Origin: Escherichia phage vB_EcoM_MM02
Length of the DNA: 64,000 nucleotides
Sequence record: MK373784.1
Strand: one strand, 5' to 3'
Shown: positions 4,615-46,191 of the stretch, in pieces
Layout: each line of letters starts with the position of its first letter
How positions within the stretch are numbered: the stretch's first letter is position 1
The notes under the pieces: generated by a model
Seen by the model: the letters and a program-made list of their open reading frames with translations, nothing else
What the model was told of the DNA's origin: nothing
Databases searched by the model: none
Program-made: the position numbers and the translations under genes

Positions 4615-4626
4615 GTGTTAAAGCGT

Positions 4627-11688: not shown

Positions 11689-11854
11689 TTTATTTTCCTC
11701 TATAGTAGATGGTTTAATCTTAACACATCTATTGAGGATGTAAACTGTTTTATGAAAATATTTTTTGATTTGAGAGGGGCACAAGGAGATAGTGAAGTGA
11801 AGATTCCAATGGATTATATTAGAAATGAGATAAAGAAGACCAGGCGGCACCTGG

Positions 11855-12178: not shown

Positions 12179-12461
12179 GAGAAATAATTCCTTGGTAAGC
12201 CCAATAAGGAGGATTAACAGAATCCTCGCCAGAGTTTTCTTCAGGAAAATAAACCTGGATAACAAATCCAGATTCATCAAAGGTAAAATAAACCGTAGGC
12301 AATTCACCTAACAATTCGGCACGAGCATTAATTTCTTCTAGATCTCGTTCACGTCCAGCCCAAAAACTAGGATTTAGATTACATTCGTAAAAATAATAGT
12401 CATTACCGAACATATCAAAACCCTTCCAACTCTCTACCACATACCGCTCAAAACTAATCAT
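12144..12461 (-). CDS. Hypothetical protein
   Basis: 105-aa ORF. Confidence 0.4.
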   Translation of the reverse strand: MISFERYVVESWKGFDMFGNDYYFYECNLNPSFWAGRERDLEEINARAELLGELPTVYFTFDESGFVIQVYFPEENSGEDSVNPPYWAYQGIISRGTKLELKEQD

Positions 12462-12463
12462 AA

Positions 12464-23685: not shown

Positions 23686-23782
23686 TTCGTTTCGATAGGT
23701 CTATAGTATCATATCCTAAAAGCATGTACACTACTTTTTAAAAATATTTTAACCCCCTAAAGGGACCCGAAGGTCCCCACAT

Positions 23783-24049
23783 TTACTTATCGCACTTAGC
23801 AACATAATTAGGCATATCACAGAATACGGAGCGAGTAACTACTCGTCCCTTTGACCATGCTTCAGTTGCTTGTCCGGCCGTGCTATTAATATAGCTTGAT
23901 TTGATATTCTCAATACCCTGAGAATGTGATGCATTTACCGAACCGTTGGAAGGCCCAGAAGACTGGTTACCACCAGCTCCTGTACCTGTGGTAGCACCAA
24001 CAGAGAATGCCATCATTACTGCGAATAAACCAATTACTAATTTTTTCAT
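23783..24049 (-). CDS. Hypothetical secreted small protein
   Basis: 88 aa; N-terminal signal-peptide-like MKKLVIGLFAVMMAFSVGA; Gly/Ser-rich. Confidence 0.45.
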   Translation of the reverse strand: MKKLVIGLFAVMMAFSVGATTGTGAGGNQSSGPSNGSVNASHSQGIENIKSSYINSTAGQATEAWSKGRVVTRSVFCDMPNYVAKCDK

Positions 24050-32637: not shown

Positions 32638-32940
32638 TTATTTACCTTTAATTACTTTAGCTGCTTCGATAGCCGCTTGCTGAAGGTCATCCATAGACAT
32701 ACCGAATTTAGAAGCAAAGTTATCAATTTTCTTTTCGACAGCATTCAAAGGCTTGGCCTGTTTACCTTCATTAGCGCCAGGAAGAGCGAGAATACGCTCT
32801 TTGTCAATATAAAGGCTTACAAGTTTCTTACGGTCTTTATCGGACAAATCATGAAATGAATGAGCCTTTTTATTTATAGCGGCTTCTAATTTACCTGCAC
32901 TCACTCGCGCTTCAGTAATAAATTCTTTATATGTTTTCAT
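32638..32940 (-). CDS. Internal (capsid-packaged) protein, IPII/IPIII-like
   Basis: N-terminal MKTYKEFITEA capsid-targeting sequence; T4 ipII/ipIII position next to denV. Confidence 0.65.
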   Translation of the reverse strand: MKTYKEFITEARVSAGKLEAAINKKAHSFHDLSDKDRKKLVSLYIDKERILALPGANEGKQAKPLNAVEKKIDNFASKFGMSMDDLQQAAIEAAKVIKGK

Positions 32941-33004
32941 TTTTTGTTTCCTTGTTTGTTTTGATAGAGTAATTATACCATATTAATACTTAAGCGTAAA
33001 CAAT

Positions 33005-33265
33005 TTAAGCTTTACCGCCAGAAATAATTCCGAAGTTGTTAAAATCGTATCCAATATCGTCAACATCTACTTTAGGATTTACTACAACATAAGCAATTTC
33101 ACTACGTTTTGCATAGGTGTTGATTTCTTTACCATCGCCACCTAAGAAAGAATACCCATTACGTTTTAATGAGCCAAAGTCTTCGGCATCACCAATGAAA
33201 GCTTTAACTTTAAATTTAGGACCTTTGGCATCTGCTTCAACGATAAATTCTTGATACATTTTCAT
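33005..33265 (-). CDS. Internal protein-like (CTS-bearing)
   Basis: N-terminal MKMYQEFIVEA. Confidence 0.55.
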   Translation of the reverse strand: MKMYQEFIVEADAKGPKFKVKAFIGDAEDFGSLKRNGYSFLGGDGKEINTYAKRSEIAYVVVNPKVDVDDIGYDFNNFGIISGGKA

Positions 33266-33271
33266 TTTTCC

Positions 33272-33685
33272 TTAGTAAATTGATTTACCATAGTATTTGT
33301 ACCAAGTCGGACGTTGAGCAATTTTTTCATCTAAGCGTGCTTGACTTATCGCAATGGACGCTTCGGACGGGACGTAATTATTACGAAATTCTACAGGAAT
33401 GTCGGAAATATCCTGGACAGTCGTGTCCTTGATTTTGAAACCACGTTTCAAGCATTCAGCGATTAGCTCGATTTGACGTAAACGTAAAAATTCGAGTTTG
33501 TCGTAAAAGAATGTTACGTGACCTGTGCCTAAGATAAATGTTGGAGAGATTTTAAAATCCTTTACACGTTTACCGTTTTGAACATGTTTACGGACTGCAC
33601 CAAATACGCGTGGTAATTCACGATACTCAGCCATAAGATGTTGGTCGGACAGTTCAGAAACAAGTGTTAAATTGATACGAGTCAT
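33272..33685 (-). CDS. denV: Endonuclease V (pyrimidine-dimer glycosylase) DenV
   Basis: [31 protein letters not shown]... recognised as T4 DenV; 138 aa from ATG at 33685. Confidence 0.9.
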
Positions 33686-33690
33686 AATTT

Positions 33691-33742
33691 CCTCCAAGTA
33701 GTTGATGAATGTATAGTATCAAAACCCTTGGAGGAAGTAAAC
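33691..33742 (-). promoter_or_regulatory. Promoter cassette with inverted repeat sequestering the denV SD
   Basis: GTTTAC, TACTAT-like -10; arms cctccaag/cttggagg, the 3' arm being the denV Shine-Dalgarno. Confidence 0.45.
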
Positions 33743-33743
33743 A

Positions 33744-34025
33744 CTATTTTTCTGAAGCGCCTGAAATATATTTTTCAAGACGTTGTTTCATCAGCGAGCC
33801 GTTCTTAGCGATTTCTTCTGGTTTATCGCACATACGCAACAAGGCTTCAAGCTTAGCGATATCGCTGGTACGTTCAAATTTGCGAGTATCTATCTTACTA
33901 GCAAGTTCAGAAATACGTGCTAATAGACTTTCAGCTTCAACCAAAGCTGCACCTAGCTTAGTTGCAAATGTGTCAGTAGCTTCGTTAAGAATAGATTCTG
34001 ATAAAAATTCACTATATGTTTTCAT
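33744..34025 (-). CDS. Internal protein-like (CTS-bearing)
   Basis: Starts [11 protein letters not shown]; its ATG overlaps the e stop (ATGA). Confidence 0.5.
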
Positions 34026-34510
34026 ATATACGCTTTCCAAGTTCCTGTTTTAAATGTTGAGATTACGCGTTTCGCGCGATTAGGTGTCTGACGATACCAT
34101 TTAGATTGGGCTAGATTTACTGCCGCTTCATCCCAACGTTTCTGTTGAAGCATACGAAGAGAATTAGTAAAACCGGCGACGCCTGATACACCCATTTGGA
34201 AGACCATATTGACCAATGCACACCGACGAACCGCATCTAAAGAATCATATACCGGTTTAAGTTTAGCATTACCCAAGATTCCGCGAACGGCTTTATCAAC
34301 GTCTTCATTAAATAGCTTTTCAGCCTCATCAAGGGTAATTGTACCGTTGCATTTACGTCCGATCATTCTGTCAAGTTCAGCTTTAGCTACGGCTAAAGAC
34401 GGGGTCTTTGTTACTAAATGGCCTATGCCAATAGTCCAAAAGCCTTCGGTGTCTTTGTATAAAGTCAGTCTAAGACCTTCGTCATTACGAAGCATTTCAA
34501 ATATATTCAT
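34022..34510 (-). CDS. e: Lysozyme (endolysin) e
   Basis: [31 protein letters not shown]... recognised as T4 lysozyme; 162 aa from ATG at 34510. Confidence 0.9.
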
Positions 34511-34512
34511 AA

Positions 34513-34536
34513 TACCTCCCACGTTTATAGGAGGTA
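34513..34536 (-). promoter_or_regulatory. Hairpin sequestering the lysozyme SD with late-promoter-like TATAAAC in the loop
   Basis: Minus-strand TACCTCC-TATAAACGT-GGGAGGTA immediately before the ATG; matches the transcript-specific translational control described for T4 gene e. Confidence 0.55.
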
Positions 34537-34544
34537 TTTATTAC

Positions 34545-35003
34545 TTATAGGAGTGTAGTGAGCACCTTATATAATGATTTGCCCATTACATATTCCCATT
34601 GAGAAGGTTTAATTAAAGCGAATGCATCAAATTCAGGAATCTGTCGTCCGTCCGGGAATGCATGATAGGAATTACAAACACTGTTTCTGAATTGCTCGTG
34701 CTCTACAGGGATGGTATATAGGAACAGATGAATATTCTTATTGTCTGAGTAATGATGTTCACCTAGGTCTTTCAGGAAGGCAGGGTCATATTGTGTAAAC
34801 CCAGTTTCTTCTTCGCATTCACGAATAGCGGCTTCAATAGGAGATTCGCCAGGTTCGACACGGCCTTTAGGAATATCCCACCGATGAGCTAATGCACCTT
34901 TAGGACGAGAACCAGTTACACGGCCCATGAATAACTCTTTATCTTTTGACATGAAGATAATACCGGCTGATAGCTCTTTCACTTTATTTTTCTTACTCAT
35001 CAT
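34545..35003 (-). CDS. nudE: Nudix hydrolase NudE
   Basis: 152 aa; Nudix box GRVEPGESPIEAAIRECEEETG; downstream of e as in T4. Confidence 0.8.
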   Translation of the reverse strand: MMSKKNKVKELSAGIIFMSKDKELFMGRVTGSRPKGALAHRWDIPKGRVEPGESPIEAAIRECEEETGFTQYDPAFLKDLGEHHYSDNKNIHLFLYTIPVEHEQFRNSVCNSYHAFPDGRQIPEFDAFALIKPSQWEYVMGKSLYKVLTTLL

Positions 35004-35229
35004 CTCGGTCCCATGATTTGGCCATTAATTCGGACATAAATTCTTCAATACGCGTTTCTTTAGATGGACTTTCACTATTAGAGACCGCAAGTTTGTAATC
35101 TGCAATAGGACAGAACATATCAAGGTCCATATTAAAATCGTCTTTGATTTTTTCTTCTGACACATCTTTATCGTATGTGTACAGATAACTATCACATGAT
35201 TCTGATTTAATGTAAATTGCTATACTCAT
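34993..35229 (-). CDS. Hypothetical small protein
   Basis: Likely start MSIAIYIK with AGGAA SD. Confidence 0.3.
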   Translation of the reverse strand: MSIAIYIKSESCDSYLYTYDKDVSEEKIKDDFNMDLDMFCPIADYKLAVSNSESPSKETRIEEFMSELMAKSWDRDDE

Positions 35230-35717
35230 CTCAAATTCCTGCATTCGGTAATAAAACGTTCAACTTCATTATTCTTGGCCTTTATCTTGTCTTTACGTTC
35301 CTGTAAACTACTTTTAACAAGATTAATAATGATGCCTACAGTACCGCCGCCAATGATGCCACCAACAACACTTATGATAATAGATGCTAATAAGATAGCA
35401 ATAATATCAACAAAACCGAAAGAACTCACCTTAGTACTAAAAAACCATACCGACGGTACAAATATAATCCATCCTGTTATCCATTGGCACTTATTGAAAA
35501 ACTTTTCAAGCTCAGCTTGAGTTGTTCGTATTACTTCATCGATAGGTTGATATCCATTAATGTATCTGTTCACGATAATACCTGCTGGCTGGTCGATTTT
35601 AAATTCTTGGCAAATATGTTTCACTAAGTAGGATGGACATCCTGTCCAATCTACTGAATAGTATGAAATACCTTCGTTGCCATCGTCTATATTAGACCAA
35701 TATGTTTTGTTAATCAT
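35226..35717 (-). CDS. Hypothetical membrane protein, C-terminal FITECR motif
   Basis: 163 aa; one or two TM helices; ends ...ERFITECRNLR. Confidence 0.45.
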   Translation of the reverse strand: MINKTYWSNIDDGNEGISYYSVDWTGCPSYLVKHICQEFKIDQPAGIIVNRYINGYQPIDEVIRTTQAELEKFFNKCQWITGWIIFVPSVWFFSTKVSSFGFVDIIAILLASIIISVVGGIIGGGTVGIIINLVKSSLQERKDKIKAKNNEVERFITECRNLR

Positions 35718-36403
35718 TACCAGCCTTCCATAGGGAATTCCAGATAAACTTGAGCATTGACACGAATTTCATTGGTAATCTTTTTAACTCGGTCTGTATT
35801 ACGAGATACACGTCCGAACCAACGCCATCCGTTACTAATTGCACGAGAACCAGTGTGCCATGTTTGCCAATCAAACTGAAGAAGAGTACGATCTGGAGCT
35901 TCCCATTTCTCTAGTTCACCTTTTTCAATTTTTTCGAGGACTTCTTTGTGCCACTGGCGATAGATAAGTTCGCCATCAGGAATCTGACTGAACTCTGCAG
36001 TTCCTGTTGCAAAATGAGTAGGACACACGTCAGCGTTAACAAGACCAAGAATATGTTCAGAATGGTAACGAGGGTTGTCATAGTCAGGTTGTCCTGCAGT
36101 AATAAAGTGTTGACCAACTGGAATATCAGGGCGAGGAACATCGTCATGGTGGTATCCAGGAATAGCAGGATACCAACCAGGCATCAGCATATGAACCCGA
36201 GAATCAAATACAACATGTTGATTAGTCCAATCAATTGGGAGATTGGCAATAAAGCTACGAGTGATTGAGCCACCATTATCCCAAGCAAAACCCAAATCAC
36301 AATTAAAGAACATTGGTTCATTTTTGATTCGGTCATTTTGTACGTTATGTGCAAAACTACCAACTGCACGAGCTTGACTATTAAAAGTTTTAGAACTATT
36401 CAT
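35717..36403 (-). CDS. Hypothetical 228-aa protein
   Basis: His/Asp-rich segments (GYHHDDVP); no confident family assignment. Confidence 0.45.
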   Translation of the reverse strand: MNSSKTFNSQARAVGSFAHNVQNDRIKNEPMFFNCDLGFAWDNGGSITRSFIANLPIDWTNQHVVFDSRVHMLMPGWYPAIPGYHHDDVPRPDIPVGQHFITAGQPDYDNPRYHSEHILGLVNADVCPTHFATGTAEFSQIPDGELIYRQWHKEVLEKIEKGELEKWEAPDRTLLQFDWQTWHTGSRAISNGWRWFGRVSRNTDRVKKITNEIRVNAQVYLEFPMEGW

Positions 36404-36404
36404 A

Positions 36405-36710
36405 TTATTTTCCTCGACATTCTTTAATGAAATTTTCTAGATTGGTAGATTCAATAGCTTTTTTACGAGCTTCTGCATGTTCTTCTTCAGACAATTTACA
36501 TTTATAATTAACCCAGACATTATGGTCGAAACTAGTCGTGGCATATAATAACAATGCTCCAACGAATAGCAAAAACGGCGATAAGAATACAAAACCAGGA
36601 ACACCATCCATACTGTAAGCCTTTTGTAATACTGCAACAGAAAGAGCTGCGTAAAAAAGTGATACAAATATTGTTAAAAGACCAATTCGGTTGGTTTCGC
36701 CTAATTTCAT
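36405..36710 (-). CDS. Hypothetical membrane protein, C-terminal FIKECR motif
   Basis: 101 aa; two TM helices; ends ...ENFIKECRGK. Confidence 0.45.
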   Translation of the reverse strand: MKLGETNRIGLLTIFVSLFYAALSVAVLQKAYSMDGVPGFVFLSPFLLFVGALLLYATTSFDHNVWVNYKCKLSEEEHAEARKKAIESTNLENFIKECRGK

Positions 36711-36768
36711 AATATTCTCCTCATGTTTTAATAGGACTACTATAACATAGTCCTATCAGTTTGTACAC

Positions 36769-36987
36769 TTATTTTGACATTTCTTCGATGTCACGACGAT
36801 ACCCATCACGAACTTCACGAAGAGCTTCAAGGCCACACATAGGCTCGATACCAGTAATGTGAACTTGATTAATCTGATACTCTACATCTTCTAACTGAGC
36901 GAAAACATAACGACGTTCTGCTGCACAACCAGGTTTAGCTTTACCGAAACGTTTATTCAAAGTAGTCATTTTTATATCTCCATTCAC
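36769..36987 (-). CDS. Hypothetical protein
   Basis: 72-aa ORF. Confidence 0.4.
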   Translation of the reverse strand: MNGDIKMTTLNKRFGKAKPGCAAERRYVFAQLEDVEYQINQVHITGIEPMCGLEALREVRDGYRRDIEEMSK

Positions 36988-37049
36988 TCATTTGTTTTGA
37001 TAGGTCTATAGTATCAACAACTACAGACCTTGTAAACTGTTTTGCGAAA

Positions 37050-38006
37050 TTATTTGAAAGGTTTTACCATATGGAAATTTTGTTTGAAACGTTTGACGTA
37101 ATCGTCGTGTCCTAAGCTTTGGTACATACTTACTACTTTGCTATAATTTTCCCAAGCGAACTCACGGAACCATCCTGATGTGATTGATGTACAGACCTTT
37201 TCAAGGGCCATCATAAAACTATCACGTGGATGGATTTTAAAGTCGTTAGGAATCTGTGAACGTTCAAGAGCTAATACACAAGCTTCTTCATATACACCGG
37301 CTAATTTAACCATTTCTGGGAATGATTCGAACTTCTCGCGCGATGTCATAACTTCTGAGCCTTCTTTCATATAAAACTTATAAGCAGGCTGGTCAGTTAG
37401 TGCAATGGCTTCATGGATAGTATCATGGTCATACGTATAGATGTCATCTTTAAAGAACGCACTTTTAGAAGTGTCAAGAACTGGGTGAGCATAATTCAAG
37501 GTTTCTTTCTGGCGTTTCAGCATAATTTCAGTAAGTTCATCGTTCAGTGTAACACCTTTACCACGAAGATACTGAATATGGTTCATAGTCTTTAAAAAGA
37601 ATGGATTATTTTTCTTGAAACGATGAGACATCTTAATTGCAAGACATATCTCAGGAGTTGCCCAGTAAAACCCGTTCAAACGGTCTTTAGTCAAATTTTT
37701 CTTGGCGTATTTTAAAAGGTCATAAGAAGACGTGAAATCTTCAGGAGTGAGTTCACCGACTAGTTCGCGAACGTTAGTGATAGCCGGAACGATGTATGCT
37801 TCAAAATGAGTTTCGCGTCCATTATGGAAGCATTTGAAAACTTGGACATCAGGGTTATCTTGGTGAACATATACACCCATCATTTGATTTTTGAATGCAT
37901 TCCAAGAACCTTGGTCCGCAATAAAGTCCCAATCACTATTTTTAATAGCGCTAGAATCAATAAGACCGTGATAGTGAAGTGCACGAGAACCAATAACTAA
38001 CATCAT
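37050..38006 (-). CDS. Hypothetical 318-aa protein
   Basis: Largest ORF in the e-tRNA island; N-terminal VIGSRALHYHG...SDWDF is weakly NTase-like. Confidence 0.45.
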   Translation of the reverse strand: MMLVIGSRALHYHGLIDSSAIKNSDWDFIADQGSWNAFKNQMMGVYVHQDNPDVQVFKCFHNGRETHFEAYIVPAITNVRELVGELTPEDFTSSYDLLKYAKKNLTKDRLNGFYWATPEICLAIKMSHRFKKNNPFFLKTMNHIQYLRGKGVTLNDELTEIMLKRQKETLNYAHPVLDTSKSAFFKDDIYTYDHDTIHEAIALTDQPAYKFYMKEGSEVMTSREKFESFPEMVKLAGVYEEACVLALERSQIPNDFKIHPRDSFMMALEKVCTSITSGWFREFAWENYSKVVSMYQSLGHDDYVKRFKQNFHMVKPFK

Positions 38007-38034
38007 AATATTTTCCTCGGATTAATTCATTAAC

Positions 38035-38286
38035 TTAAATTTCACGACATGCGATATTATATTCATCCCAGAGGTCATCATGTGAAGCCTCTACCAATGG
38101 AACGATTGTACCGTTTATGTCTTCATTATAAGGGCAAATTGTACAGTGCGCATCTTCGAATCGGATGCCTTTGTGTTCAGATTTTTTATAACGCATATCG
38201 AATATCTTTGCAAACTTTTCACGAGTAATGGTTTTACCAACCACTTTGGTTCCTATACTTTCGTAATAAATCATTGTGGACTCCAT
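38035..38286 (-). CDS. Hypothetical protein
   Basis: 83-aa ORF. Confidence 0.4.
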   Translation of the reverse strand: MESTMIYYESIGTKVVGKTITREKFAKIFDMRYKKSEHKGIRFEDAHCTICPYNEDINGTIVPLVEASHDDLWDEYNIACREI

Positions 38287-38336
38287 TTGTTTTGATAGGA
38301 CTACTATAACATAGCCCTATCTTGTTGTAAACTGTT

Positions 38337-38534
38337 TTAGCAAGAATAACTAGATGATACCCAGCCTTGAACAGTGATACTATTGTGGGATAATGAGATC
38401 GCGTCCTGGAGATTCAGACCTGCGTTATCTTCAATCCATAATGTAACTTCTTCGCGTTCTTCTGTTGCAATTTGGAACAGGTTTTCCAGAGCAGCTACTG
38501 CCGTACGTACAGCACAATCTAATTCACGAGACAT
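38337..38534 (-). CDS. Small protein of the C-terminal GWVSSSxxC family
   Basis: 65 aa; ends ...VQGWVSSSYSC. Confidence 0.4.
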   Translation of the reverse strand: MSRELDCAVRTAVAALENLFQIATEEREEVTLWIEDNAGLNLQDAISLSHNSITVQGWVSSSYSC

Positions 38535-38543
38535 ATTGTTTCC

Positions 38544-38816
38544 TTAGCAAGTGTGAGAAGATGCGACCCAACCACCGGTTTCGAGGCTCAGGTTGTAGTC
38601 GTATTGGTAAACGTCAGCCCATTCAGCATAGCCGTTTTTTGTACAACGTTCAAGATCGGCTTTAAGATGTCCGGGTGAATGATAGGTTCCACCCATACCA
38701 TAAGCTGGGTACAAGTTGAACGTTGTGTTTTGTTTATCAGCAATTTCTTTGGCAGCCTCAATAGCTGCATAGATTTTTGCTACAGCTTCAGCCAGTTCGG
38801 TTTGTTCTTTAGACAT
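38544..38816 (-). CDS. Small protein of the C-terminal GWVSSSxxC family
   Basis: 90 aa; ends ...ETGGWVASSHTC. Confidence 0.4.
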   Translation of the reverse strand: MSKEQTELAEAVAKIYAAIEAAKEIADKQNTTFNLYPAYGMGGTYHSPGHLKADLERCTKNGYAEWADVYQYDYNLSLETGGWVASSHTC

Positions 38817-38825
38817 AATGATTCC

Positions 38826-39131
38826 TTAGCACAACGCAGAAGACGAAACCCAAGCACCTTCAGTAATAACGTAACCATTACCTTCACGCTTAACATCGCC
38901 ACCATTATTTTCAATTTCATCTTTCATCCACTGGGATACGATTTCACCCTTAGGATAATAAGTACGACCGCTACCATAATCACCTACAGAAAATGATACG
39001 GCATATTGGTCTGCGATCTTTGTTGCTTCTTCTTCGATACGTTCAGCTTGATTCAGAAGTTTATAAATTGCATCTGAAGCGGATTTGGCATCATTAAACT
39101 CTGGTACTTTAATTTCAATAATCTTACTCAT
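38826..39131 (-). CDS. Small protein of the C-terminal GWVSSSxxC family
   Basis: 101 aa; ends ...TEGAWVSSSALC. Confidence 0.4.
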   Translation of the reverse strand: MSKIIEIKVPEFNDAKSASDAIYKLLNQAERIEEEATKIADQYAVSFSVGDYGSGRTYYPKGEIVSQWMKDEIENNGGDVKREGNGYVITEGAWVSSSALC

Positions 39132-39487
39132 TTTCTACATTCCTTAATAAAGTTTTCGATTGTTTCATTTTCACGTCTAGCTAGGAGTTCATTATAACTA
39201 ATCATTTGAGAAGCGTAAACCTTTTTATTTTTCTTGTTGTGGTTTATAAAATCGTAGTAAAAATAGACTATAGTACAAAATGATGCGATGGATGCAAAGG
39301 CTTGGGTATACCGTAAGTCCTGCCATTGGTCTGTGAATCCACCAGTGTTCCCTATAAATCCTAACACAACGCCGTCAATAAGAAATCCAACTAATCCAAA
39401 GGCAAATCCCATGCCAATACTCATAATAAAAATTAGAATGTTCTCACCAAGAGAAGGCCATACGGTTAAGAGTTGAGGCTTTTGCAT
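39128..39487 (-). CDS. Hypothetical membrane protein, C-terminal FIKECR motif
   Basis: 119 aa; about 3 TM helices; ends ...ENFIKECRK. Confidence 0.45.
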   Translation of the reverse strand: MQKPQLLTVWPSLGENILIFIMSIGMGFAFGLVGFLIDGVVLGFIGNTGGFTDQWQDLRYTQAFASIASFCTIVYFYYDFINHNKKNKKVYASQMISYNELLARRENETIENFIKECRK

Positions 39488-39861
39488 CTTATTTCCTTAA
39501 CGAATTCCATAGCTTCTTCATATTCATACTTTTTAACAGCTTCATCATACTGAGCTTGGGCTTTTGCGCACTGAACTCTCCATTCTCTTAATCGGGCTCT
39601 GTGATGACGGCCTTGGTGCCAATATCCTACCCAATTAATAGGCATTAATAAAAACGGTACAATAAGTGGTGCGACGAACATTAATGAAAATGCTGCATCA
39701 GACGATATAACTTCACTAGAATCTAAAACAGCTCCTATAATCATAAAGATTAAAAATGCTAAAGCTAAAATAGGGCCAAATAGTACTTCATTTGGGATTA
39801 ATTTACGCTTGTATTCATACGCCCAGGGCTTACTTGGCATGTATAGGGTTGGCTTTGACAT
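39466..39861 (-). CDS. Hypothetical membrane protein
   Basis: Likely start MSKPTLYMPSK; two TM helices; C-terminus ...EFVKEIRCK. Confidence 0.4.
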   Translation of the reverse strand: MSKPTLYMPSKPWAYEYKRKLIPNEVLFGPILALAFLIFMIIGAVLDSSEVISSDAAFSLMFVAPLIVPFLLMPINWVGYWHQGRHHRARLREWRVQCAKAQAQYDEAVKKYEYEEAMEFVKEIRCKSLNS

Positions 39862-40453
39862 ATTCTCTACATTCCATAATAAATTGCTCAAGGATTAAAT
39901 TGTTAGTGAAATTAGGACTAACAACCATAGTTTCATAAAGCGCATCAATAGCACTTAAAGCATCAACTCTTTTAAGCAAAGGCTTGCCTTCATACATAGT
40001 TTCAGAATCGATGATTAACGTAAAGTAATATTTTTTATTATCGACTAGAACTTCTGTATCGATATAAAACATATTAGACCTCAGAAGCTTATCTCTAAAA
40101 CCATAATAATCTTCAGAGCGTTCGCTGATATATTCCCATTCAGTGTTTAAACAACAAACAGACCATGTAGGAGCAACGAAATCAGTGAATCTAATATCAT
40201 GGTCTGCAACTAGTTTAGCAATAGCTCCGATATCATGAATCATAATACCTGGGGCTAATAAAGATTTTCTGCTATGGCTAGCCGTTTTCTCGGTGGTCTC
40301 ATAAGAAGACGACCAGTACCATTTACGTCCGGTTGCAACATATCGTAATGAATCAACTAAAGACGTAGGTGGATTTACCTTATCTCGGAACTCTTCGAAC
40401 ATTGAGTCAATATCATTATTTTGGTTTCGCATGTTAACTCCTTTATTATCCAA
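39830..40453 (-). CDS. Hypothetical protein with FIMECR motif near C-terminus
   Basis: 207-aa ORF. Confidence 0.4.
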   Translation of the reverse strand: MDNKGVNMRNQNNDIDSMFEEFRDKVNPPTSLVDSLRYVATGRKWYWSSSYETTEKTASHSRKSLLAPGIMIHDIGAIAKLVADHDIRFTDFVAPTWSVCCLNTEWEYISERSEDYYGFRDKLLRSNMFYIDTEVLVDNKKYYFTLIIDSETMYEGKPLLKRVDALSAIDALYETMVVSPNFTNNLILEQFIMECREYVKANPIHAK

Positions 40454-40481
40454 AAGGAGGACCGGAGTCCTCCGTATTATT

Positions 40482-41075
40482 TTATTTCAAAGAGTTAATA
40501 TATTCTTGTACATCAGCAGAAGTGGTTTCGACGCCGGCTGGAGTGCCATTGAACGTTTCAACACGAGTCAGAGTGTCTTCGATATCAACCTTAGTCAGTG
40601 CAGCTATTTCAATTACATCATCGGCCGTAGAGATACCAAGGGCATTGGCTGCTCGAGTTTCACGAATGTATTCGAGTTTGATTGCCAGGTTCTGACGAGC
40701 ATCGTCAAGTTCAACCACCTTACGAGCAATTTCAATTCGCATAGCGGCGTACCCGTCAGCTTTTGTATTAAGTTGTTCGGCAGTTCGACGATACAGAAGA
40801 CCAAGCTTAGCATGCATAGTAACATCTTGTCCTTCAGCCAGGAGCTTACGAATTTCACGTTCCTTAGAAGCGGCTTGCTTGTTCTTTTCATTAACAAGTT
40901 CGCGAATACGTTTTTCTTCATTAATAGATTTAACAGAAGCCGTTTTTAGTTCTTTGATTTGGGTAATCAACTTATCTGCAGCTGCGTTATACTGTTCTTC
41001 GACAGTCAGATTTTTAGCCATAGCAGTATCCAGTTTAGTGCGAATGAATTCAACAAGTTTCTTCAGTGTGTTCAT
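40482..41075 (-). CDS. Hypothetical coiled-coil protein
   Basis: Likely start [10 protein letters not shown] with AAAGG SD; predicted all-helical. Confidence 0.45.
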
Positions 41076-41097
41076 ATTATTACCTTTCAATTGGTGG

Positions 41098-41147
41098 TTT
41101 ATTATCCAACGAGAGCATTATACTCTGCTCTCAAGAGTTTGTAAATT
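41098..41147 (-). promoter_or_regulatory. Promoter/stem-loop cassette (gagagc/gctctc arms flanking TATAAT)
   Basis: Near-copy of 10270..10318 with compensatory stem substitutions. Confidence 0.5.
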
Positions 41148-41373
41148 ATTTTTTAATCAAATTGACATAAAACTTGGCGTCTTCGGGGTGCATGCCTTCG
41201 CAGTATTCTTCAACCATGAACTTCTTAACAGCTTCATAAGGACCACTCAGATTAAGCTCAGTTGTCCAGAACTTGGAATCTTGGACTGAATCGATACGAA
41301 CTTCAGGGTGGCGGTTGCGAATAACTTCTTCTGTGTATTCATAATCAACGACATCAATACTAACTTTAGCCAT
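41146..41373 (-). CDS. Hypothetical protein
   Basis: 75-aa ORF. Confidence 0.4.
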   Translation of the reverse strand: MAKVSIDVVDYEYTEEVIRNRHPEVRIDSVQDSKFWTTELNLSGPYEAVKKFMVEEYCEGMHPEDAKFYVNLIKK

Positions 41374-41419
41374 TTTGTTTTCCTCTTGATTTGATAGGAC
41401 TACTATAACATAAACTTAC

Positions 41420-41584
41420 TTAGATGTAAATTATTTCAACGTCACCTTTAGCTGCTTTATAACCTTCAGCCCAAGATACAACAGAGTTTTTATCCGAGGA
41501 TTCAAATTCAGGCATTGGACTTTCACCAATATTCACACAGTATGTTTCTTCATTTTCATCGAACCAAATAATTAAAGTAGTCAT
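41420..41584 (-). CDS. Hypothetical small protein
   Basis: Likely start MTTLIIWFDE with GAGGAG SD. Confidence 0.3.
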   Translation of the reverse strand: MTTLIIWFDENEETYCVNIGESPMPEFESSDKNSVVSWAEGYKAAKGDVEIIYI

Positions 41585-41643
41585 TTTGTTTACTCCTCTG
41601 TAGTTGATAAGTCTATAGTACCACCATCCTTGGCGTTTGTACA

Positions 41644-42147
41644 TCATTTATTTTTAATTTTGCAAATTTTTTCTGCTTCAGCAATTGCAGCGTCAATGAT
41701 GCTTTGTGCAATTTTATTACTAGTTGACCTGGCAATCACACTAAGAACAATTTCTTTTTCTTCACCACCCCAACCCCAAGTCCTTTGTTCGTGGGTACCT
41801 TTAACTACAGCTGAAACTTCAACAGAACGTCCACCATCAGAAGTTTTAACATCTACAACCCAATCACCATCTTTCTCTTCTACCCTTGATTTATCCCAAG
41901 AAATACTAATATATGATTCGCCGTCAATAGAAGTCGCCGGGTTTTTCTCTACCGTAAGACCTTCACTTTCCAGCCATTCAATAGTATTTGCGCATAAATC
42001 AGAAGAACACCTCATCGGAAACCGGCAAGATTTTTCACCTTTAGATGCTGCATCGTACATCTTTTCCAAAATACGCTTTTGCACGTTTTTAAAAATAGTT
42101 TCAGCAGATTCTTCAGATTTTTTATTCAGTTCAGTGTAAAGACTCAT
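41644..42147 (-). CDS. Hypothetical protein
   Basis: 167-aa ORF. Confidence 0.45.
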   Translation of the reverse strand: MSLYTELNKKSEESAETIFKNVQKRILEKMYDAASKGEKSCRFPMRCSSDLCANTIEWLESEGLTVEKNPATSIDGESYISISWDKSRVEEKDGDWVVDVKTSDGGRSVEVSAVVKGTHEQRTWGWGGEEKEIVLSVIARSTSNKIAQSIIDAAIAEAEKICKIKNK

Positions 42148-42242
42148 AACATTTTCCTCTATGGTTGATAAGTCTATAGTATCATGTCCTTAGAAGAAGT
42201 AAACATCTTTATGAAATATTTTTATGCCCTAGATACCAAAAG

Positions 42243-42264
42243 GCCCCAACCATAAGGAAGGGGC
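42243..42264 (-). terminator. Structured terminator-like hairpin (gcccc..ggggc with internal loop)
   Basis: Downstream of the 42271..42735 stop; same element as 26895..26918. Confidence 0.45.
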
Positions 42265-42270
42265 ATTCTA

Positions 42271-42735
42271 TTATTTAATTTGTTTAGCAGACCAGATACG
42301 GTCTTTAATAAGTTTTTGGATATCTTCAACATACTCAAGGCTATGAGCGTGAGGATTATCTTTGAAGCTATGTGCTCGTGCCAGTTTCTGGCCTTCTGTT
42401 TTGATTACTAAAAGCTCTTTAAGAATTGCTTCATACTTAGAAATAATTCCTTTGGCGATATTTTTTTCTTGAGCTGCTTTAGGGTCTGTTTTTGGCGCAG
42501 GTGCTTTACCTGTAGCTTTCTGGAACAATTCACCTGATGCAGCTAGGCTTTTAAAAACTCGGCTAACAGTATTAGCATTAGTAAAACCTTCGGCTTTAAA
42601 ATCTCTAATAAAACGGAAACGTTCTTCATCAGAGGCGTCTTTGTAAGAATATTTACCTGCTTGAATTGCTGCAATCGCAGCGGCTTTTACATCTGAACTA
42701 GATTGTTCAGTCAAAAATTCAGCGTATGATTTCAT
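42271..42735 (-). CDS. Internal protein-like (CTS-bearing) 154-aa protein
   Basis: N-terminal MKSYAEFLTEQ resembles the capsid-targeting sequence. Confidence 0.5.
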   Translation of the reverse strand: MKSYAEFLTEQSSSDVKAAAIAAIQAGKYSYKDASDEERFRFIRDFKAEGFTNANTVSRVFKSLAASGELFQKATGKAPAPKTDPKAAQEKNIAKGIISKYEAILKELLVIKTEGQKLARAHSFKDNPHAHSLEYVEDIQKLIKDRIWSAKQIK

Positions 42736-42781
42736 GTTGCTTTTCCTAAGTTAATTAACTTATCTATTTATTATGCCAAAA

Positions 42782-42805
42782 AGCCCCGACCTTTCGGAAG
42801 GGGCT
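42782..42805 (-). terminator. Structured terminator-like hairpin (agcccc..ggggct) followed by T-run on minus strand
   Basis: Third copy of the architecture; lies between the tRNA region and the downstream ORF. Confidence 0.45.
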
Positions 42806-43116
42806 AAGCCTTGCGGCAACCTTGTCGGGGTTCCACCTGCTAAGGCAAGTGTTTGTACGAAACGCCGGGATTCGAACCCGGTTATTAAGCAGTTGACGCT
42901 ACTCAATATTTTTAAAAGGCCATATCTCGACCATATCCGAACGTTCCGTCAAAAACGCTACTCGGCTTACGGCAAAGATATTTCCTCGAATCGATAATTC
43001 GGTGCGCCGTTTCTGCTGTGATGTAAGGGGATATTAACAAATCGTAAAGATTTATTAAGACCAGTCCTTACTCAGGGAACATCAGTCCGACGACTTGCCG
43101 GTAGCGACCCGGCTTC

Positions 43117-43463
43117 TTATTTTGGCATATCATCAATTTGCTCTCGACGCCGACGCCATAGATTAATCGCTTCATTAACACATTCAGCATTTGGTATATG
43201 ACGACAATAGTATAGTGATTCGCGTTTCTGGAACCGATGTTGTAATGGAATTTCGTTTAAAAGGTCTTTACGGTCAAAGTATTCAAAACTAGTTAACCCT
43301 GAACGGTTTTTAAGAAACTTCCAATGGCCAAATTCATTTTGGAAATAAACGTAATCAGCGTGTTGATATAACGAATTAATCAACCGGTCGGAAATAACTG
43401 TTTCACGTTCGTTAAAATAAAACGTTAAGTCATGAACTACCAGATAAATATTGCCTTTCATAT
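43117..43463 (-). CDS. Hypothetical protein adjacent to tRNA genes
   Basis: Likely start MKGNIYLVVHDL with GAGGA SD 17 nt after tRNA-Arg; the track ORF's upstream extension runs into the tRNA. Confidence 0.4.
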
Positions 43464-43479
43464 TTTCCTCACTTAAAGT

Positions 43480-43556
<77 letters not shown>

Positions 43557-43559
43557 GAT

Positions 43560-43634
43560 TGGTGACCCTGGCTGGTTTCGATCCAGCTACCTATCAGTTA
43601 TGAGCTGACAGCTCTCCCATTGAGCTACAGGGCC
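43560..43634 (-). tRNA. tRNA with CAT anticodon (Ile2 or Met type), CCA encoded
   Basis: Hand-folded cloverleaf: acceptor GGCCCTG/CAGGGTC, D stem GCTC/GAGC, anticodon loop CTCATAA, T stem GCTGG/CCAGC, 3' ACCA. Confidence 0.7.
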
Positions 43635-43713
43635 TAAATAACTTTCTATTATGAAAGGCACTTTAGAGCACCTTTGGTAATAGAGGGTATGAATTAATAA
43701 TAACACATAATTC

Positions 43714-44229
43714 TTAAAGCAAATCAATCATTTTAACAGTCGGCAAAACGATTTCTTCTTCAATATAAGCAAATTCAACACATTCAACTACACGCAAGAA
43801 ATCATAATCATAATATTCAGAAGCATGGCCAAGAATATCAATGAGACCTTCTGATACTAAATATCCATTCTCATGGAACAGGTCGAATACACGCGATTCG
43901 TCTTCTTCAGATTTATTACCGAGGTCGACTTCAATATCAAAGACCTTTTTAATGAATTCTGGATAAAGCTGGTCTGAGAACAGTCCTTCAACCAAGTATT
44001 CATAGATTAAAAGCGAACAATCACTGAATAGTGTATTACCACAGTAACGTTCAGCTTTAGTGCTGGAATGACGGCTCTTAAATTTCTTTAAGAGATATTT
44101 AAACTGTTGGAGCTCATGCTCTTCTACACCAAATAATGTTTTGGTTTTATAGTTGTCGCCGTCATTTTCCCAAGTAGTGACATCAATTACGTAACCCTTA
44201 GGAATTGTACTGCCTAAACAAATATTCAT
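43714..44229 (-). CDS. Hypothetical acidic protein
   Basis: 171-aa ORF. Confidence 0.45.
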   Translation of the reverse strand: MNICLGSTIPKGYVIDVTTWENDGDNYKTKTLFGVEEHELQQFKYLLKKFKSRHSSTKAERYCGNTLFSDCSLLIYEYLVEGLFSDQLYPEFIKKVFDIEVDLGNKSEEDESRVFDLFHENGYLVSEGLIDILGHASEYYDYDFLRVVECVEFAYIEEEIVLPTVKMIDLL

Positions 44230-44233
44230 TTAC

Positions 44234-44524
44234 TCACCGTACCATATTAATGTAATTATATTCAATGCAACGTAATTTCAAAGGATTCTTGAAAATATCA
44301 TATTCAAGAGGGCCTTTTTCTGTTTCAATAAAGAAATCAAAGTTAACTGTGTTAAATTTATCGTCTTCACAGAGTAATTTAACTTGCGAAGATGAACGGT
44401 CGATATAAACCTTTTCAACCTCAAAGTTAGTCAGAATACCGTAGTCATCAACTAGTGCTTTAGCTGCACGTTGATCGCTTTCATATCCATTCTCAATGGA
44501 CGATACTTTAGCATAAAGAATCAT
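44234..44524 (-). CDS. Hypothetical protein
   Basis: 96-aa ORF. Confidence 0.4.
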   Translation of the reverse strand: MILYAKVSSIENGYESDQRAAKALVDDYGILTNFEVEKVYIDRSSSQVKLLCEDDKFNTVNFDFFIETEKGPLEYDIFKNPLKLRCIEYNYINMVR

Positions 44525-44883
44525 GAATGTTCCACCATTTCAAAGGTATGAGCATCAACAATATGATACCAGTCAAAATTTTCTTCTGCGTTTTTATAAA
44601 TTTCGCGAAGAGCCTCAACAGTTTTTCCTGTAGCAACAAGGTCGTCAATACCACCAAGAGGATAACAGTCATAACCAGCAAACAGAAGGAAATTAATAGT
44701 TTCTGTAGGTTCTGGATGCAGTGTACCGTTGTCATCGACTACTTCAAAGAACATATAACCAGGCGATTTAGATTTAATCCAAGCCCATGCTTGAGCTGCT
44801 GAATCAAATGGTCTGCGTATCAAACGACAATCATGGTCTTTAGAAGGATTTGCTTCAAAATCCGCATATACGTGATATTTCAT
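44521..44883 (-). CDS. Hypothetical protein
   Basis: Likely start MKYHVYADFE with AAGGTGAG SD right after the upstream stop. Confidence 0.4.
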   Translation of the reverse strand: MKYHVYADFEANPSKDHDCRLIRRPFDSAAQAWAWIKSKSPGYMFFEVVDDNGTLHPEPTETINFLLFAGYDCYPLGGIDDLVATGKTVEALREIYKNAEENFDWYHIVDAHTFEMVEHS

Positions 44884-44884
44884 T

Positions 44885-45091
44885 TTACTCACCTTTTGCA
44901 ATTTTATCCATAACAATAGCGATTAAACCGATTAGAAATGCTACTACCAATGAGATAGAATTTTCAGTTGTTGTCAGTAGTCCGCAAATGAATCCTACAA
45001 ACATCGAAAAACTAAAAGCCATTGAAGCAATTACTACAGCAACATTACGAATCAGTTCAGCGCGTTTCATTTTATTTCTCCATTTACTCAT
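44885..45091 (-). CDS. Hypothetical small membrane protein
   Basis: 68 aa; two hydrophobic helices. Confidence 0.35.
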   Translation of the reverse strand: MSKWRNKMKRAELIRNVAVVIASMAFSFSMFVGFICGLLTTTENSISLVVAFLIGLIAIVMDKIAKGE

Positions 45092-45140
45092 TTGTTTTGA
45101 TAGGACTACTATAACATAGTCCTACCAAGATGTAAACTAC
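45091..45140 (-). promoter_or_regulatory. Promoter/stem-loop cassette, identical 50-mer to 26384..26433
   Basis: tttgttttgataggactactataacatagtcctaccaagatgtaaactac. Confidence 0.55.
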
Positions 45141-45428
45141 TTACAGAAGAGTTTTTGCAATAATTTTAAGCTGAGCTACAGAAATATGCTTAGCTTTAAA
45201 CAGTGCAGTCTCTTCGGCCGGAGAGATAACAATAGTAGCGCCGTCTTTCTTAGCAGACCATCCATCCCCTAAGTAAACAGTACCTTTTACTTCTTCGCCG
45301 TCAACCAGACTAATCATTGGTTTACCCTCACGTCCTTTATTTGCTTTAATAACTTCGGAAGTAAGGGTTGCTTCGGTCAGAGTAGAAACGTTAGCAACAG
45401 GTGATATAAATTCTTTATAGGTTTTCAT
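45141..45428 (-). CDS. Internal protein-like (CTS-bearing), T4 ipI position
   Basis: N-terminal MKTYKEFISP; upstream of 57B as ipI is in T4. Confidence 0.5.
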   Translation of the reverse strand: MKTYKEFISPVANVSTLTEATLTSEVIKANKGREGKPMISLVDGEEVKGTVYLGDGWSAKKDGATIVISPAEETALFKAKHISVAQLKIIAKTLL

Positions 45429-45505
45429 TTTATTTCCTTGAGGTTGTTTATTTGATAGGATGATAGTAACACACCATCATCCTTATGTAAACTGTTTTGT
45501 GAAAA

Positions 45506-46191
<686 letters not shown>

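Follow-up and report, generated by a model that had tools for sequence, protein, structure and literature searches.

A conserved core with plastic ends in the cassette-rich region between nudE and the stable RNA genes of Escherichia phage vB_EcoM_MM02

Hyperplastic regions and the shuffling of promoter/stem-loop (PeSL) cassettes are published concepts for T4-type phages (Arbiol et al. 2010, PMC2839356; Comeau et al. 2014, PMC4122927). The two studies covered RB49/phi1, PST/T4 and nt-1/KVP40, and RB69 and the genus Mosigvirus appear in neither. A PeSL cassette carries a Shine–Dalgarno (SD) sequence and a start codon at its 3′ end (PMC2839356), and the early-promoter consensus of PST/T4 is TTTACW-N17-TAYWAT (PMC4122927). 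The present study concerns positions 34993–42735 of a 64,000-nucleotide stretch, hereafter the window, of Escherichia phage vB_EcoM_MM02 (MK373784.1). From the sequence alone, an earlier reading (the sequence-only reading) had described this interval, which follows nudE, as an accessory region built by cassette shuffling. The window is an RB69-like (Mosigvirus) T-even phage genome. A 10-kb query from it (34000–44000) matched 917 phage records and was covered to at least 80% in 122 of them; the closest genomes, mobillu (98.5% identity), JK45 (97.8%) and APCEc01 (97.5%), are all Mosigvirus, and blastn found APCEc01 and mobillu collinear with the window over 33500–45000. Collectively, the analyses below reveal a region whose core is conserved and whose ends are plastic, a real feature that is largely explained already. 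Very probably, it is the Mosigvirus form of the T-even early accessory region that lies between nudE/e and the stable-RNA/tRNA cluster, punctuated by PeSL cassettes and subject to module exchange.

Three layers make up the region. The first consists of the T-even-wide genes e.2, e.3, e.4, e.5 and e.6. The second is an insert between e.2 and e.3, comprising a predicted dioxygenase, a predicted nucleotidyltransferase and a family of acidic proteins ending in Cys, which occurs in several genera of the Straboviridae and not in T4. The third is a variable 1.3-kb end beside rnaC in which alternative modules are swapped, including genes that bear a capsid-targeting sequence (CTS). PeSL-type cassettes would delimit the transcription units: they may fire as σ70 early promoters and attenuate read-through, and the 40–60 bp of sequence that they share could serve as a substrate for homologous recombination, by which single-gene modules would be inserted, deleted and swapped. 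The products, which include two predicted enzymes and four or five small membrane proteins with a FIKECR end, probably serve non-essential host-modifying or host-range functions.

Cassettes and exchanged modules

In the window, the strict promoter pattern TTTACD-N17-TAHWRT matches 14 sites, every one of them on the minus strand, versus 1.04 ± 1.01 in shuffled sequences, and five of the 14 fall inside the interval. Relaxing the −35 box and the spacer yields 23 minus-strand and two plus-strand matches; eight of the 23 (binomial P = 0.024) lie within the interval, whose share of the early region is 16%. Cassettes were found upstream of g17, g16, g15, e.6, g07, g05 and g04 (gene designations as in Table 1), with another inside e.3, ahead of g10. 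Where the sequence-only reading had credited many genes with a promoter cassette of their own, the cassettes are indeed repeated, and they precede eight of the 19 genes. In a repeat search they resolve into families D1 (66 nt, three copies), D2 (31 nt, five copies) and D3. Their anatomy runs from AT-rich sequence through (G)TTTACA, 17 nt of spacer, T(G)nTATAGT or TACTAT and CCTATCAAA(A)C to a 3′ end at which, as read from the sequence, the SD sequence and ATG of the next gene lie. The cassette hairpin has a stem of 8–13 bp, its 3′ arm overlaps the −10 box, and at strong sites its z-score against shuffled sequences is −4 to −5. At 36767, 37036 and 38331, within the interval, the hairpins are strong (z of −4.2 to −4.7); at 41145 and 42201 they are weaker (z about −3), and none was detected at 41430, 41641 or 39219; equivalent hairpins outside the interval (z of −4.4 to −5.3) occur at 26429, 33741, 45136 and 45491. 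The stem sequences vary by site (TAGGACTA/TAGTCCTA, GGTCTGTAG/CTATAGACC, GGATGAT/ATCATCC and GAGAGC/GCTCTC), indicating that structure, not a single sequence, is what is kept. By their anatomy the cassettes are of the PeSL type and would act as promoters and terminators. Gene e.6 apparently forms a monocistronic unit with its own putative promoter and terminator.

By blastn the window is collinear with RB69 apart from three places. The gene g05 together with one cassette constitutes a 262-bp module (36769–37030) that is absent from RB69, LF82-33 and phi25-307, in which only one cassette is present between the 318-amino acid (aa) gene and g04. In the window the order is GTTTACA, then spacer, hairpin, SD sequence, g05, stop codon and GTGTACA, then spacer, hairpin, SD sequence and g04; thus, the start of the inserted unit directly follows one −35 box, and a second −35 box closes it. 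The 262-bp module is 95–97% identical at the nucleotide level in Tequatrovirus phiD1, teqdroes, slur08, A6-6 and Shigella A2. In phiD1, the genome in which its position was examined, it resides in the nrdC.x region between ORFs of 969 and 1011 nt, which are probably nrdC.10 and nrdC.11, and the homology spans both flanking cassettes and ends at the neighboring genes. Because the surroundings are far more diverged (the NudE proteins of the window and T4 are 63% identical), an identity of 95–97% marks g05 as a single-gene module, bounded by cassettes, that was transferred recently between the genera and, in phiD1, also between loci.

The other exchanges cluster at the end of the region beside rnaC. 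The mosaic gene g17 is split at residue 92, with residues 1–92 assigned to phrog_18312 (the RB69ORF146c type) and residues 92–167 to phrog_8232; its coverage is 54–62% in three Mosigvirus genomes, and the intragenic recombination point lies near 41886. The adjoining g18 module (42160–42777) is replaced by e.8, ORF148c and ORF149c in RB69 and by a 208-aa gene in G53 and LF82-33, such that at least three alternative genes are found in this slot. Its breakpoints are at 42159/42160, in the g17 cassette on the downstream side, and at 42777/42778, in the hairpin that follows rnaC on the upstream side. Cassette shuffling, as proposed from the sequence, is therefore visible at the ends of the region, in g05 and the g18 slot, but the core is conserved.

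T-even internal proteins are injected together with the DNA. The N-terminal decapeptide of g18 matches the CTS of T4, MKTYQEFIAE (bioRxiv 10.1101/2021.01.19.427310), at six of 10 positions, with conservative T3S and I8L changes and Glu at position 10. About 75 records, or roughly half of the Mosigvirus genomes, carry the gene at 90% identity or more; many Tequatroviruses have it at about 75% identity. CTS-like starts are also borne by the alternatives in the slot: MKTYAEFLTE in RB69ORF149c, MYTFNEFLAE in the G53/LF82-33 gene and MKTYNEFLNE in the dhaeg gene. By these N-termini the slot beside rnaC reads as a polymorphic internal-protein locus, which is a form of variation already known in T-even phages. 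Two more CTS-bearing genes, both on the minus strand, flank denV and e in the window, one at 32638–32940 (MKTYKEFITE, similar to T4 ipII) and one at 33744–34025; the first 43 residues of g18 resemble the former, and the CTS-coding DNA of g18 and the latter constitutes direct repeat D15.

These findings bear on the proposal that the whole region is an anti-defense or host-takeover island, most of whose products act against host immunity or other host functions; the sequence-only reading had considered the interval likely to be enriched for such genes. Such a role is compatible with that of an exchangeable early accessory region and deserves tentative consideration, although we regard it as doubtful. 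Sequences of the σ70 type suggest early expression; g18 and its slot-mates carry the CTS of injected internal proteins; IPI and IpII of T-even phages have been reported to inhibit type IV restriction, and phage accessory regions in general have been described as rich in counter-defense genes (bioRxiv 10.1101/2023.04.06.535777). In addition, g06 is predicted to share the fold of the MenT toxins. Yet comparison of the ORFs with Pfam, PHROGs, NCBIfam and the PDB matched no characterized anti-defense or host-shutoff protein, a search of PADLOC, which holds defense and not anti-defense proteins, gave no match, and no literature on these genes was found. Moreover, the dioxygenase, e.6 and the nucleotidyltransferase evolve slowly and are syntenic across genera, unlike fast-evolving arms-race genes. 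Only g18 in the region carries a recognizable hallmark, the CTS, that bears on anti-defense, making the slot beside rnaC the most sensible spot in the region in which to seek anti-restriction functions.

Core and boundaries of the region

A tblastn presence/absence matrix was compiled for the window proteins against 13 loci, including six Mosigvirus genomes. Twelve of the 19 genes are intact in all six, and the variable ones are g01, e.2, g03, g05, e.3, g16 and g18, to which the mosaic C-terminus of g17 is added. The gene g01 is missing from T4 and phi25-307 and occurs in five of the six Mosigvirus genomes, as well as in Gapriver-, Dhaka-, Winkler- and Karamvirus. Although e.2 is detectable in all six Mosigvirus genomes, it is truncated in phi25-307, split into two coding sequences in mobillu (2727–3219 of the compared locus) and shortened in LF82-33, which has also lost most of e.3 (for the two LF82-33 genes together, 1194–1541 and 4739–4838 of the compared locus); damage of this kind in mobillu and LF82-33 indicates that small membrane-protein genes decay repeatedly within the genus.

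The core extends beyond the genus. Gaprivervirus VR7 keeps the order nudE–g01–e.2–g03–g06–small GWV genes (encoding the Cys-ending acidic family)–e.3–e.4, Dhakavirus dhaeg retains this VR7-type order from nudE to e.4 and e.6 as well, and Winklervirus LC53 and Karamvirus Pet-CM3-4 retain g01, g06, one GWV gene and e.6. T4 and Jiaodavirus have a short form of the region that lacks most of the genes, an indirect hint that these are non-essential. In 12 of the 13 loci the flanking genes keep the same order, with e/nudE at one end and tRNA.2-4, 57B, 57A and gene 1 at the opposite end. A contig of about 230 kb from an Aeromonas T4-like phage (ENA ERZ27313663, k141_36940, 3499–7375) carries four homologs within 4 kb, namely of a GWV gene (44% identity), the nucleotidyltransferase (45%), the dioxygenase (82%) and e.6 (51%), together with four small ORFs. 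In this contig the cluster lies downstream of an Rnl1-type RNA ligase gene, and the dioxygenase is far better conserved than its neighbors (45–51%). The idea that the block between e.2 and e.3 is specific to Mosigvirus was rejected, as it is also seen in VR7, dhaeg, LC53, Pet-CM3-4 and the Aeromonas contig. By parsimony, the block appears to be old and T4, having lost it, would be a reduced form. Because the core block is common to several genera, the extra length relative to T4 is mostly the block that T4 lacks, and not an island built locally.

Two side observations concern this backbone. In VR7 (11813–12463 of the compared locus), a 216-aa gene annotated as a restriction endonuclease stands between the dioxygenase and nucleotidyltransferase genes and is a further module insertion into the same backbone. 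In LC53, the sole homolog of g03 (31% identity; 23244–23930 of the compared locus) is found some 10 kb away in the mobD/nrdC-side region, adjoining a DksA/TraR-like zinc-finger gene, while the nucleotidyltransferase remains at the e.2–e.3 position.

Such conservation invites the view that the region is not plastic at all, but a conserved functional early cluster of the Tevenvirinae, of which T4 is a deletion derivative and in which the cassettes are alike simply through serving the same polymerase. The 12 genes intact in all six Mosigvirus genomes, the synteny with Gapriver- and Dhakavirus and in part with Winkler- and Karamvirus, the recurrence of the GWV–nucleotidyltransferase–dioxygenase–e.6 cluster in an Aeromonas phage, the 122 records that hold at least 80% of the 10-kb query, and a dioxygenase that is 82–89% identical across genera all speak for it. 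However, seven of the 19 genes vary among only six congeners, in addition to the g17 mosaic; the g05 module is 95–97% identical across genera amid far more diverged neighbors, and in phiD1 sits at another locus with its junctions in cassettes; and at least three alternative genes occupy the g18 slot. We therefore consider full conservation unlikely. The earlier designation as an accessory region is supported in part: it is rich in cassettes and modules have been swapped at them, but its backbone is syntenic beyond the genus. Alignment of the compared loci and presence/absence analysis, checks of the kind that had been suggested along with that designation, place the variability at the ends and find the core syntenic in three to five genera; conservation of the gene set across T4-like phages, which had been named as grounds for abandoning it, holds for the core and not for the ends.

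Within the interval every gene is on the minus strand, such that transcription proceeds from high to low coordinates. By the ORF list, the translations and three independent annotations there are 19 genes, fewer than the approximately 25 first counted, and the intergenic gaps of 28–123 bp are too short for further ones. The gene products range from 54 to 318 aa, and most are small with no described function, as the sequence-only reading had said. It had also correctly located the ORFs of 228 and 318 aa (g03 and g06); its statement that only these two are large is a relative one, as the interval also contains e.5 with 200 aa, e.6 with 197 aa and three other ORFs of 167, 163 and 154 aa. GenBank copies of the region are labeled “hypothetical protein” nearly throughout. 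When 20 ORFs were compared with Pfam, PHROGs, NCBIfam and PADLOC, the only matches were to DUF7277/DUF7275 and Phage_FRD3, and their PHROG assignments are “unknown function” everywhere with the exception of e.2, “membrane protein.” Sequence searches of the PDB with g03, g06, e.5, e.6, g17 and g18 gave no significant match. Literature searches on DUF7275, DUF7277, the RB69ORF names and T4 e.3/e.5/e.6 found no relevant paper, and neither a paper on SegB amplification (PMC13096335) nor an accessory-gene screen (bioRxiv 2023.04.06.535777) mentions the genes of the region.

Regarding the boundaries, nudE does flank the interval on the low-coordinate side, as had been stated, but the tRNA genes do not adjoin it on the other. 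Positions 42735–43480 contain a terminator-like hairpin, homologs of rnaC and rnaD, and a 114-aa ORF (43117–43461) that lies between rnaD and tRNA-Arg and is an insertion relative to T4. The window has only two tRNAs, tRNA-Arg(UCU) and tRNA-Met(CAU), on the minus strand at 43480–43634. The rnaC and rnaD homologs are unannotated, although the order tRNA-Arg, rnaD, rnaC is retained as in T4, and rnaC is far better conserved relative to T4 than any adjoining protein gene. An Rfam search of 33000–46000 returned the two tRNAs only, and neither Rfam nor ARAGORN reported rnaC or rnaD, which seem to have no Rfam family. As the sequence-only reading had stated, the T4 interval is the shorter one: from nudE to rnaC, T4 has seven genes (e.2–e.8) in 3.4 kb, compared with 7.85 kb in the window, where the distance from nudE to tRNA-Arg is 8.5 kb. 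In RB69, 21 genes are present up to tRNA-Arg.

Table 1. Genes, cassettes, hairpins and stable RNAs of the region and its flanks in the window (D1, D2, D3 and D13 are repeat families)
Feature	Coordinates	Strand	Remarks
nudE, Nudix hydrolase	34545..35003	-	Annotated in APCEc01, mobillu and RB69; downstream conserved flank
g01, 78-aa acidic protein	34993..35229	-	RB69ORF130c type; phrog_2900
g02, e.2 homolog, 163 aa	35226..35717	-	Two-transmembrane (two-TM) membrane protein; RB69 annotation; phrog_2203; tail ERFITECR
g03, 228 aa	35717..36403	-	Predicted PhyH-like Fe(II)/2-oxoglutarate dioxygenase (conserved residues and model)
g04, 101-aa two-TM protein	36405..36710	-	phrog_9798, weak phrog_2203; tail ENFIKECRGK; paralog of the e.2 C-terminal half
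PeSL-type cassette before g04	36708..36773	-	GTGTACA, hairpin TAGGACTA/TAGTCCTA over TATAGT, SD, ATG; D1; z = -4.7
g05, 66-aa ORF	36769..36969	-	phrog_6200; single-gene module 36769-37030 bounded by two cassettes
PeSL-type cassette before g05	36988..37049	-	-35 at 37036; hairpin z = -4.2
g06, 318 aa	37050..38006	-	DUF7277+DUF7275; predicted minimal nucleotidyltransferase (MenT / ANT(2'') / LnuA fold class)
g07, 79-aa ORF	38035..38274	-	phrog_3723
PeSL-type cassette before g07	38275..38336	-	-35 at 38331; hairpin z = -4.5
g08, g09, g10 (65, 90, 101 aa)	38337..39131	-	Tandem acidic paralogs; end G-W-V-[SA]-S-S-x-x-C-COOH
g11, e.3 homolog	39128..39487	-	Membrane protein; tail ENFIKECRK
Promoter-like site inside e.3	39191-39219	-	Pattern match, without hairpin
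g12, e.4 homolog	39466..39861	-	Two-TM protein; tail EFVKEIRCK
g13, e.5 homolog, 200 aa	39830..40432	-	Soluble; QFIMECR 13 residues before the end, just upstream of the e.4 start
Intrinsic-terminator-like hairpin after e.6	40456..40473	-	GGAGGACTCCGGTCCTCC + TTTT; annotated terminator in G53
g14, e.6 homolog	40482..41075	-	88% to T4 e.6; most widely conserved gene in the region
Early-promoter cassette before e.6	41091..41145	-	TTTACA-N17-TATAAT; hairpin GAGAGC/GCTCTC over -10
g15, Phage_FRD3-family protein (frd.3-like)	41146..41373	-	Pfam PF05798, E = 1.3e-38
Early-promoter cassette before g15	41374..41436	-	D1; degenerate hairpin
g16, 54-aa ORF	41420..41584	-	phrog_5461; absent from G53
Cassette before g16	41585-41643	-	TGTACA-N17-TACTAT
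g17, 167 aa, mosaic gene	41644..42147	-	N-terminal part common to RB69ORF146c; C-terminal part 41670-41886 differs
Composite cassette before g17	42148..42270	-	Terminator hairpin, AT-rich stretch, TTTACT-N16-TACTAT, SD; D13, D2, D3
Terminator hairpin after g18	42233-42264	-	GCCCC...GGGGC + TTTT
g18, 154 aa	42271..42735	-	Basic (+7); N-terminus MKSYAEFLTE = internal-protein CTS
Hairpin after rnaC	42773..42804	-	GCCCCTTCCGAAAGGTCGGGGC+TTTTT; D13; true upstream edge of the region
rnaC homolog	42856-42994	-	137/139 identical to T4 rnaC
rnaD homolog	43001-43117	-	87% identical to T4 rnaD

Two predicted enzymes and recurrent C-terminal tails

The product of g03 has 1290 homologs, the best 120 of which are all at least 69% identical to it. 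It is 88–89% identical in VR7 and dhaeg, where the adjoining e.2 is just 27–29% identical. Residues H85/H86, D87/D88 and H183, candidates for the HxD...H metal triad, are invariant in 34 sequences, as are R194 and R198, candidates for the basic residue that binds 2-oxoglutarate. In the predicted structure (pLDDT 87, with low confidence for residues 90–110 by the HxD motif), H183 and R194 are modeled on adjacent strands, 11 residues apart. The Foldseek comparison, which had been suggested for such genes, returned 2-oxoglutarate (2OG) oxygenases exclusively as top matches (GriE, EvdO2 and HygX; probability 0.97–0.99), all Fe(II)/2OG enzymes, but with TM-scores of at most 0.43. The motif residues and the model together make a 2OG dioxygenase the best reading of g03, with moderate confidence.

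For g06, the model has the core α/β nucleotidyltransferase fold. All of 35 sequences, with identities as low as 47%, retain G6, S7, D25, D27 and E69. These residues fit the catalytic signature hG[GS] ... [DE]x[DE] ... third carboxylate, and the model puts them behind strand 1, in strand 2 and in a strand further along. The protein is thus predicted to be a nucleotidyltransferase of the Pol-β superfamily, similar to MenT and ANT. The possibility that it belongs to a MenT toxin–antitoxin system was rejected, as there is no antitoxin partner and no sequence similarity, only a likeness of fold: g06 stands among small, unrelated ORFs of the phage, none of which is MenA- or AbiEi-like, and PADLOC gave no match.

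The three tandem genes g08–g10 belong to the GWV family, and g09 and g10 are recognizably similar (E = 1e-5). A word-indexed search with g10 retrieved only seven proteins, whereas an exhaustive profile search yielded 173 clusters at 50% identity, nearly all of 70–120 aa. Family members share the motifs IAD..F, (D/E)YGxGxTYYP and G-x-W-x-S-S-x-x-Cys, with Cys as the last residue in all 22 members fetched, and the family has no Pfam entry. VR7 and dhaeg each carry three copies with the GWV motif, inside longer runs of small ORFs.

The linkage and order of these genes survive from coliphages to the Aeromonas T4-like phage of about 230 kb, which raises the idea of one functional system made up of the GWV proteins, the nucleotidyltransferase, the dioxygenase and possibly e.6. 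The two enzymes might then modify the Cys-terminated small proteins, or might act jointly on a host RNA or nucleotide target. The argument draws on conserved linkage, and the databases and literature searched offered no described function for the GWV, nucleotidyltransferase or dioxygenase families; we regard a single system as improbable.

A second tail, [F]-[IV]-x-E-[CI]-R, occurs in five genes, e.2, g04, e.3, e.4 and e.5. The sequence-only reading had noted paralogous tails, and two families of them are real: FIKECR in five genes and GWVSSSxxC in the three tandem ones. Neither tail was found on any other minus-strand ORF of the 64-kb window; one further FI.ECR match, in a 61-aa plus-strand ORF (33247–33432), is probably spurious. 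Four of the five FIKECR carriers consist of two transmembrane-like helices, a charged helix and the tail, and their mutual similarity is limited to the tail. The tail is retained in T4 (EFVIDCRKIK in e.3, KFVKESRCK in e.4 and KFVKECREY in e.5), VR7, dhaeg, LC53, Pet-CM3-4 and Jiaodavirus, even where the remainder of the protein is about 30% identical. Its codons double as the SD sequence of the next gene. Because the SD sequence is drawn from different codons and the tail codons vary synonymously, constraints on both the peptide and translation initiation seem to act. By analogy with the N-terminal CTS, FIKECR and GWVSSSxxC might serve as tags that direct the protein or mediate interaction. 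That the FIKECR tails are not protein motifs but nucleic-acid junction elements, combining a ribosome-binding site with recombination microhomology and merely translated, would fit the overlap of each tail with the SD sequence of the next gene (tails end 0–13 codons before the ATG or overlap it), the normal distance of the e.5 motif from the e.4 start codon in spite of its lying 13 codons before the stop, and the identity of the e.3 and e.5 tails at 20 of 22 nt (repeat family D6), but it is quite unlikely, as the SD codons vary (K-E in e.3 and e.4, R-G-K in g04, R-N in e.2), the peptide is kept through synonymous changes (Arg CGA/AGA/AGG, Cys TGT/TGC, Lys AAA/AAG) and across genera in proteins that are otherwise 27–36% identical, four of the five carriers share one architecture, and no indel breakpoint was found at a tail, for which reasons a role as recombination junctions was rejected.

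Relation to described systems

Several observations weigh against the interpretation of the region as an early accessory region shaped by module exchange at PeSL cassettes. The density of cassettes is only about twofold higher than in the remaining early region (P = 0.024). Cassettes coincide with the boundaries of indels and replacements for g05, g18 and the phiD1 module, but two deletions in phi25-307 are counterexamples: g01 was lost between 7-bp GAGATGA microrepeats with no cassette involved, and g03 via an imprecise 703-bp deletion that truncates e.2. The T4 order, e.3 and then e.2, is not derivable by a simple cassette–cassette or tail–tail crossover; the junctions do not fit, and such an origin of the T4 short form was rejected. 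That T4 lost the block is a direction drawn by parsimony from 13 loci and one contig, and promoter and terminator activity, like recombination at the cassettes, is read from sequence. The Foldseek matches of g03 are weak (E values of 3e-3 to 2e-2, TM-scores of 0.3–0.43), with Pfam, NCBIfam and PDB sequence searches empty. These points notwithstanding, the exchangeable accessory region is the interpretation that we favor, and it has consequences for annotation. The “island” is the RB69-type form of a region that more than 120 GenBank phage records already contain. Its cassettes correspond to the PeSLs of other T4-type phages, and its surplus over T4 is largely a block missing from T4. The g05 module provides a clean inter-genus case of a cassette-bounded single-gene module and supports PeSL shuffling in a newly covered genus. 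In addition, two widespread Straboviridae proteins gain testable predictions of enzyme activity, nucleotidyltransferase for the DUF7277/DUF7275 protein and 2OG dioxygenase for the one of 228 aa.

Among characterized proteins, g03 most resembles the PhyH-family dioxygenases (GriE, 5ncj; EvdO2, 4xac; HygX, 4zpi). Its predicted jelly-roll matches 2OG oxygenases only, its invariant H-x-D ... H ... R residues have the expected order and spacing, and the UniRef cluster of one homolog is named “Phytanoyl-CoA dioxygenase family protein.” It differs from them in the empty sequence searches and low TM-scores given above. The predicted g06 protein shares with the MenT/AbiEii and ANT/Lnu nucleotidyltransferases (PDB 8an4, 6j7n, 6y56, 4xje, 4wh5) the Pol-β signature, in which an invariant G-S follows strand 1, D-x-D lies on strand 2 and E69 supplies the third carboxylate. 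In contrast to these enzymes, to which it has no detectable sequence similarity, g06 bears an additional helical DUF7275 domain of about 190 residues, and its context, without a visible antitoxin-like partner, is not that of a MenT toxin–antitoxin pair. With IPI, IPII and IPIII, the T-even internal proteins, g18 has in common its CTS-like start, its basic charge (+7) and a slot that carries other CTS-bearing genes in congeners; past the N-terminus, however, it is not similar to any of the three, and the T4 slot beside rnaC is not an internal-protein locus.

The e.1(nudE)–e.8 cluster of T4 (NC_000866) has the same position and orientation as the window region. The two share orthologs of e.2, e.3, e.4, e.5 and e.6, at 36–88% aa identity, and tRNA.2, tRNA.3, tRNA.4, ipI, 57B, 57A and gene 1 lie upstream in the window too. 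T4 differs in lacking g01, g03–g10, g15–g18 and g19, and instead has e.7 and e.8; it also carries eight tRNAs and segB, whereas the window has only two tRNAs. Furthermore, two in-frame stop codons interrupt T4 e.2 (3473–3961 of the compared locus, minus strand). The annotated 102-aa product ends at an in-frame TAG, and past the second stop the frame continues with a hydrophobic stretch and then the family tail, NNFITECRKLK*, directly beside nudE. T4 e.2 appears, then, to be the 163-aa RB69-type gene interrupted by nonsense codons.

The closest parallel is with the hyperplastic regions and their PeSL cassettes. As in those regions, clusters of small early genes, mostly without a described function, are set amid conserved core blocks; the intergenic cassettes are repeated and combine an AT-rich stretch, σ70-like −35 and −10 hexamers with a 17-nt spacer, a stem-loop within that spacer or across the −10 hexamer, an SD sequence and ATG; and the boundaries of indels and replacements among related phages fall inside cassettes. 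The hexamers in the window match the PST/T4 consensus save for the frequent TATAGT. The differences are that the dominant stem in the window is TAGGACTA/TAGTCCTA, compared with the G-tract–loop–C-tract (polyG/polyC) stem of RB49, that the window cassettes carry a conserved CCTATCAAA box 3′ of the −10 hexamer, and that a large part of the region in vB_EcoM_MM02 is conserved and not plastic.

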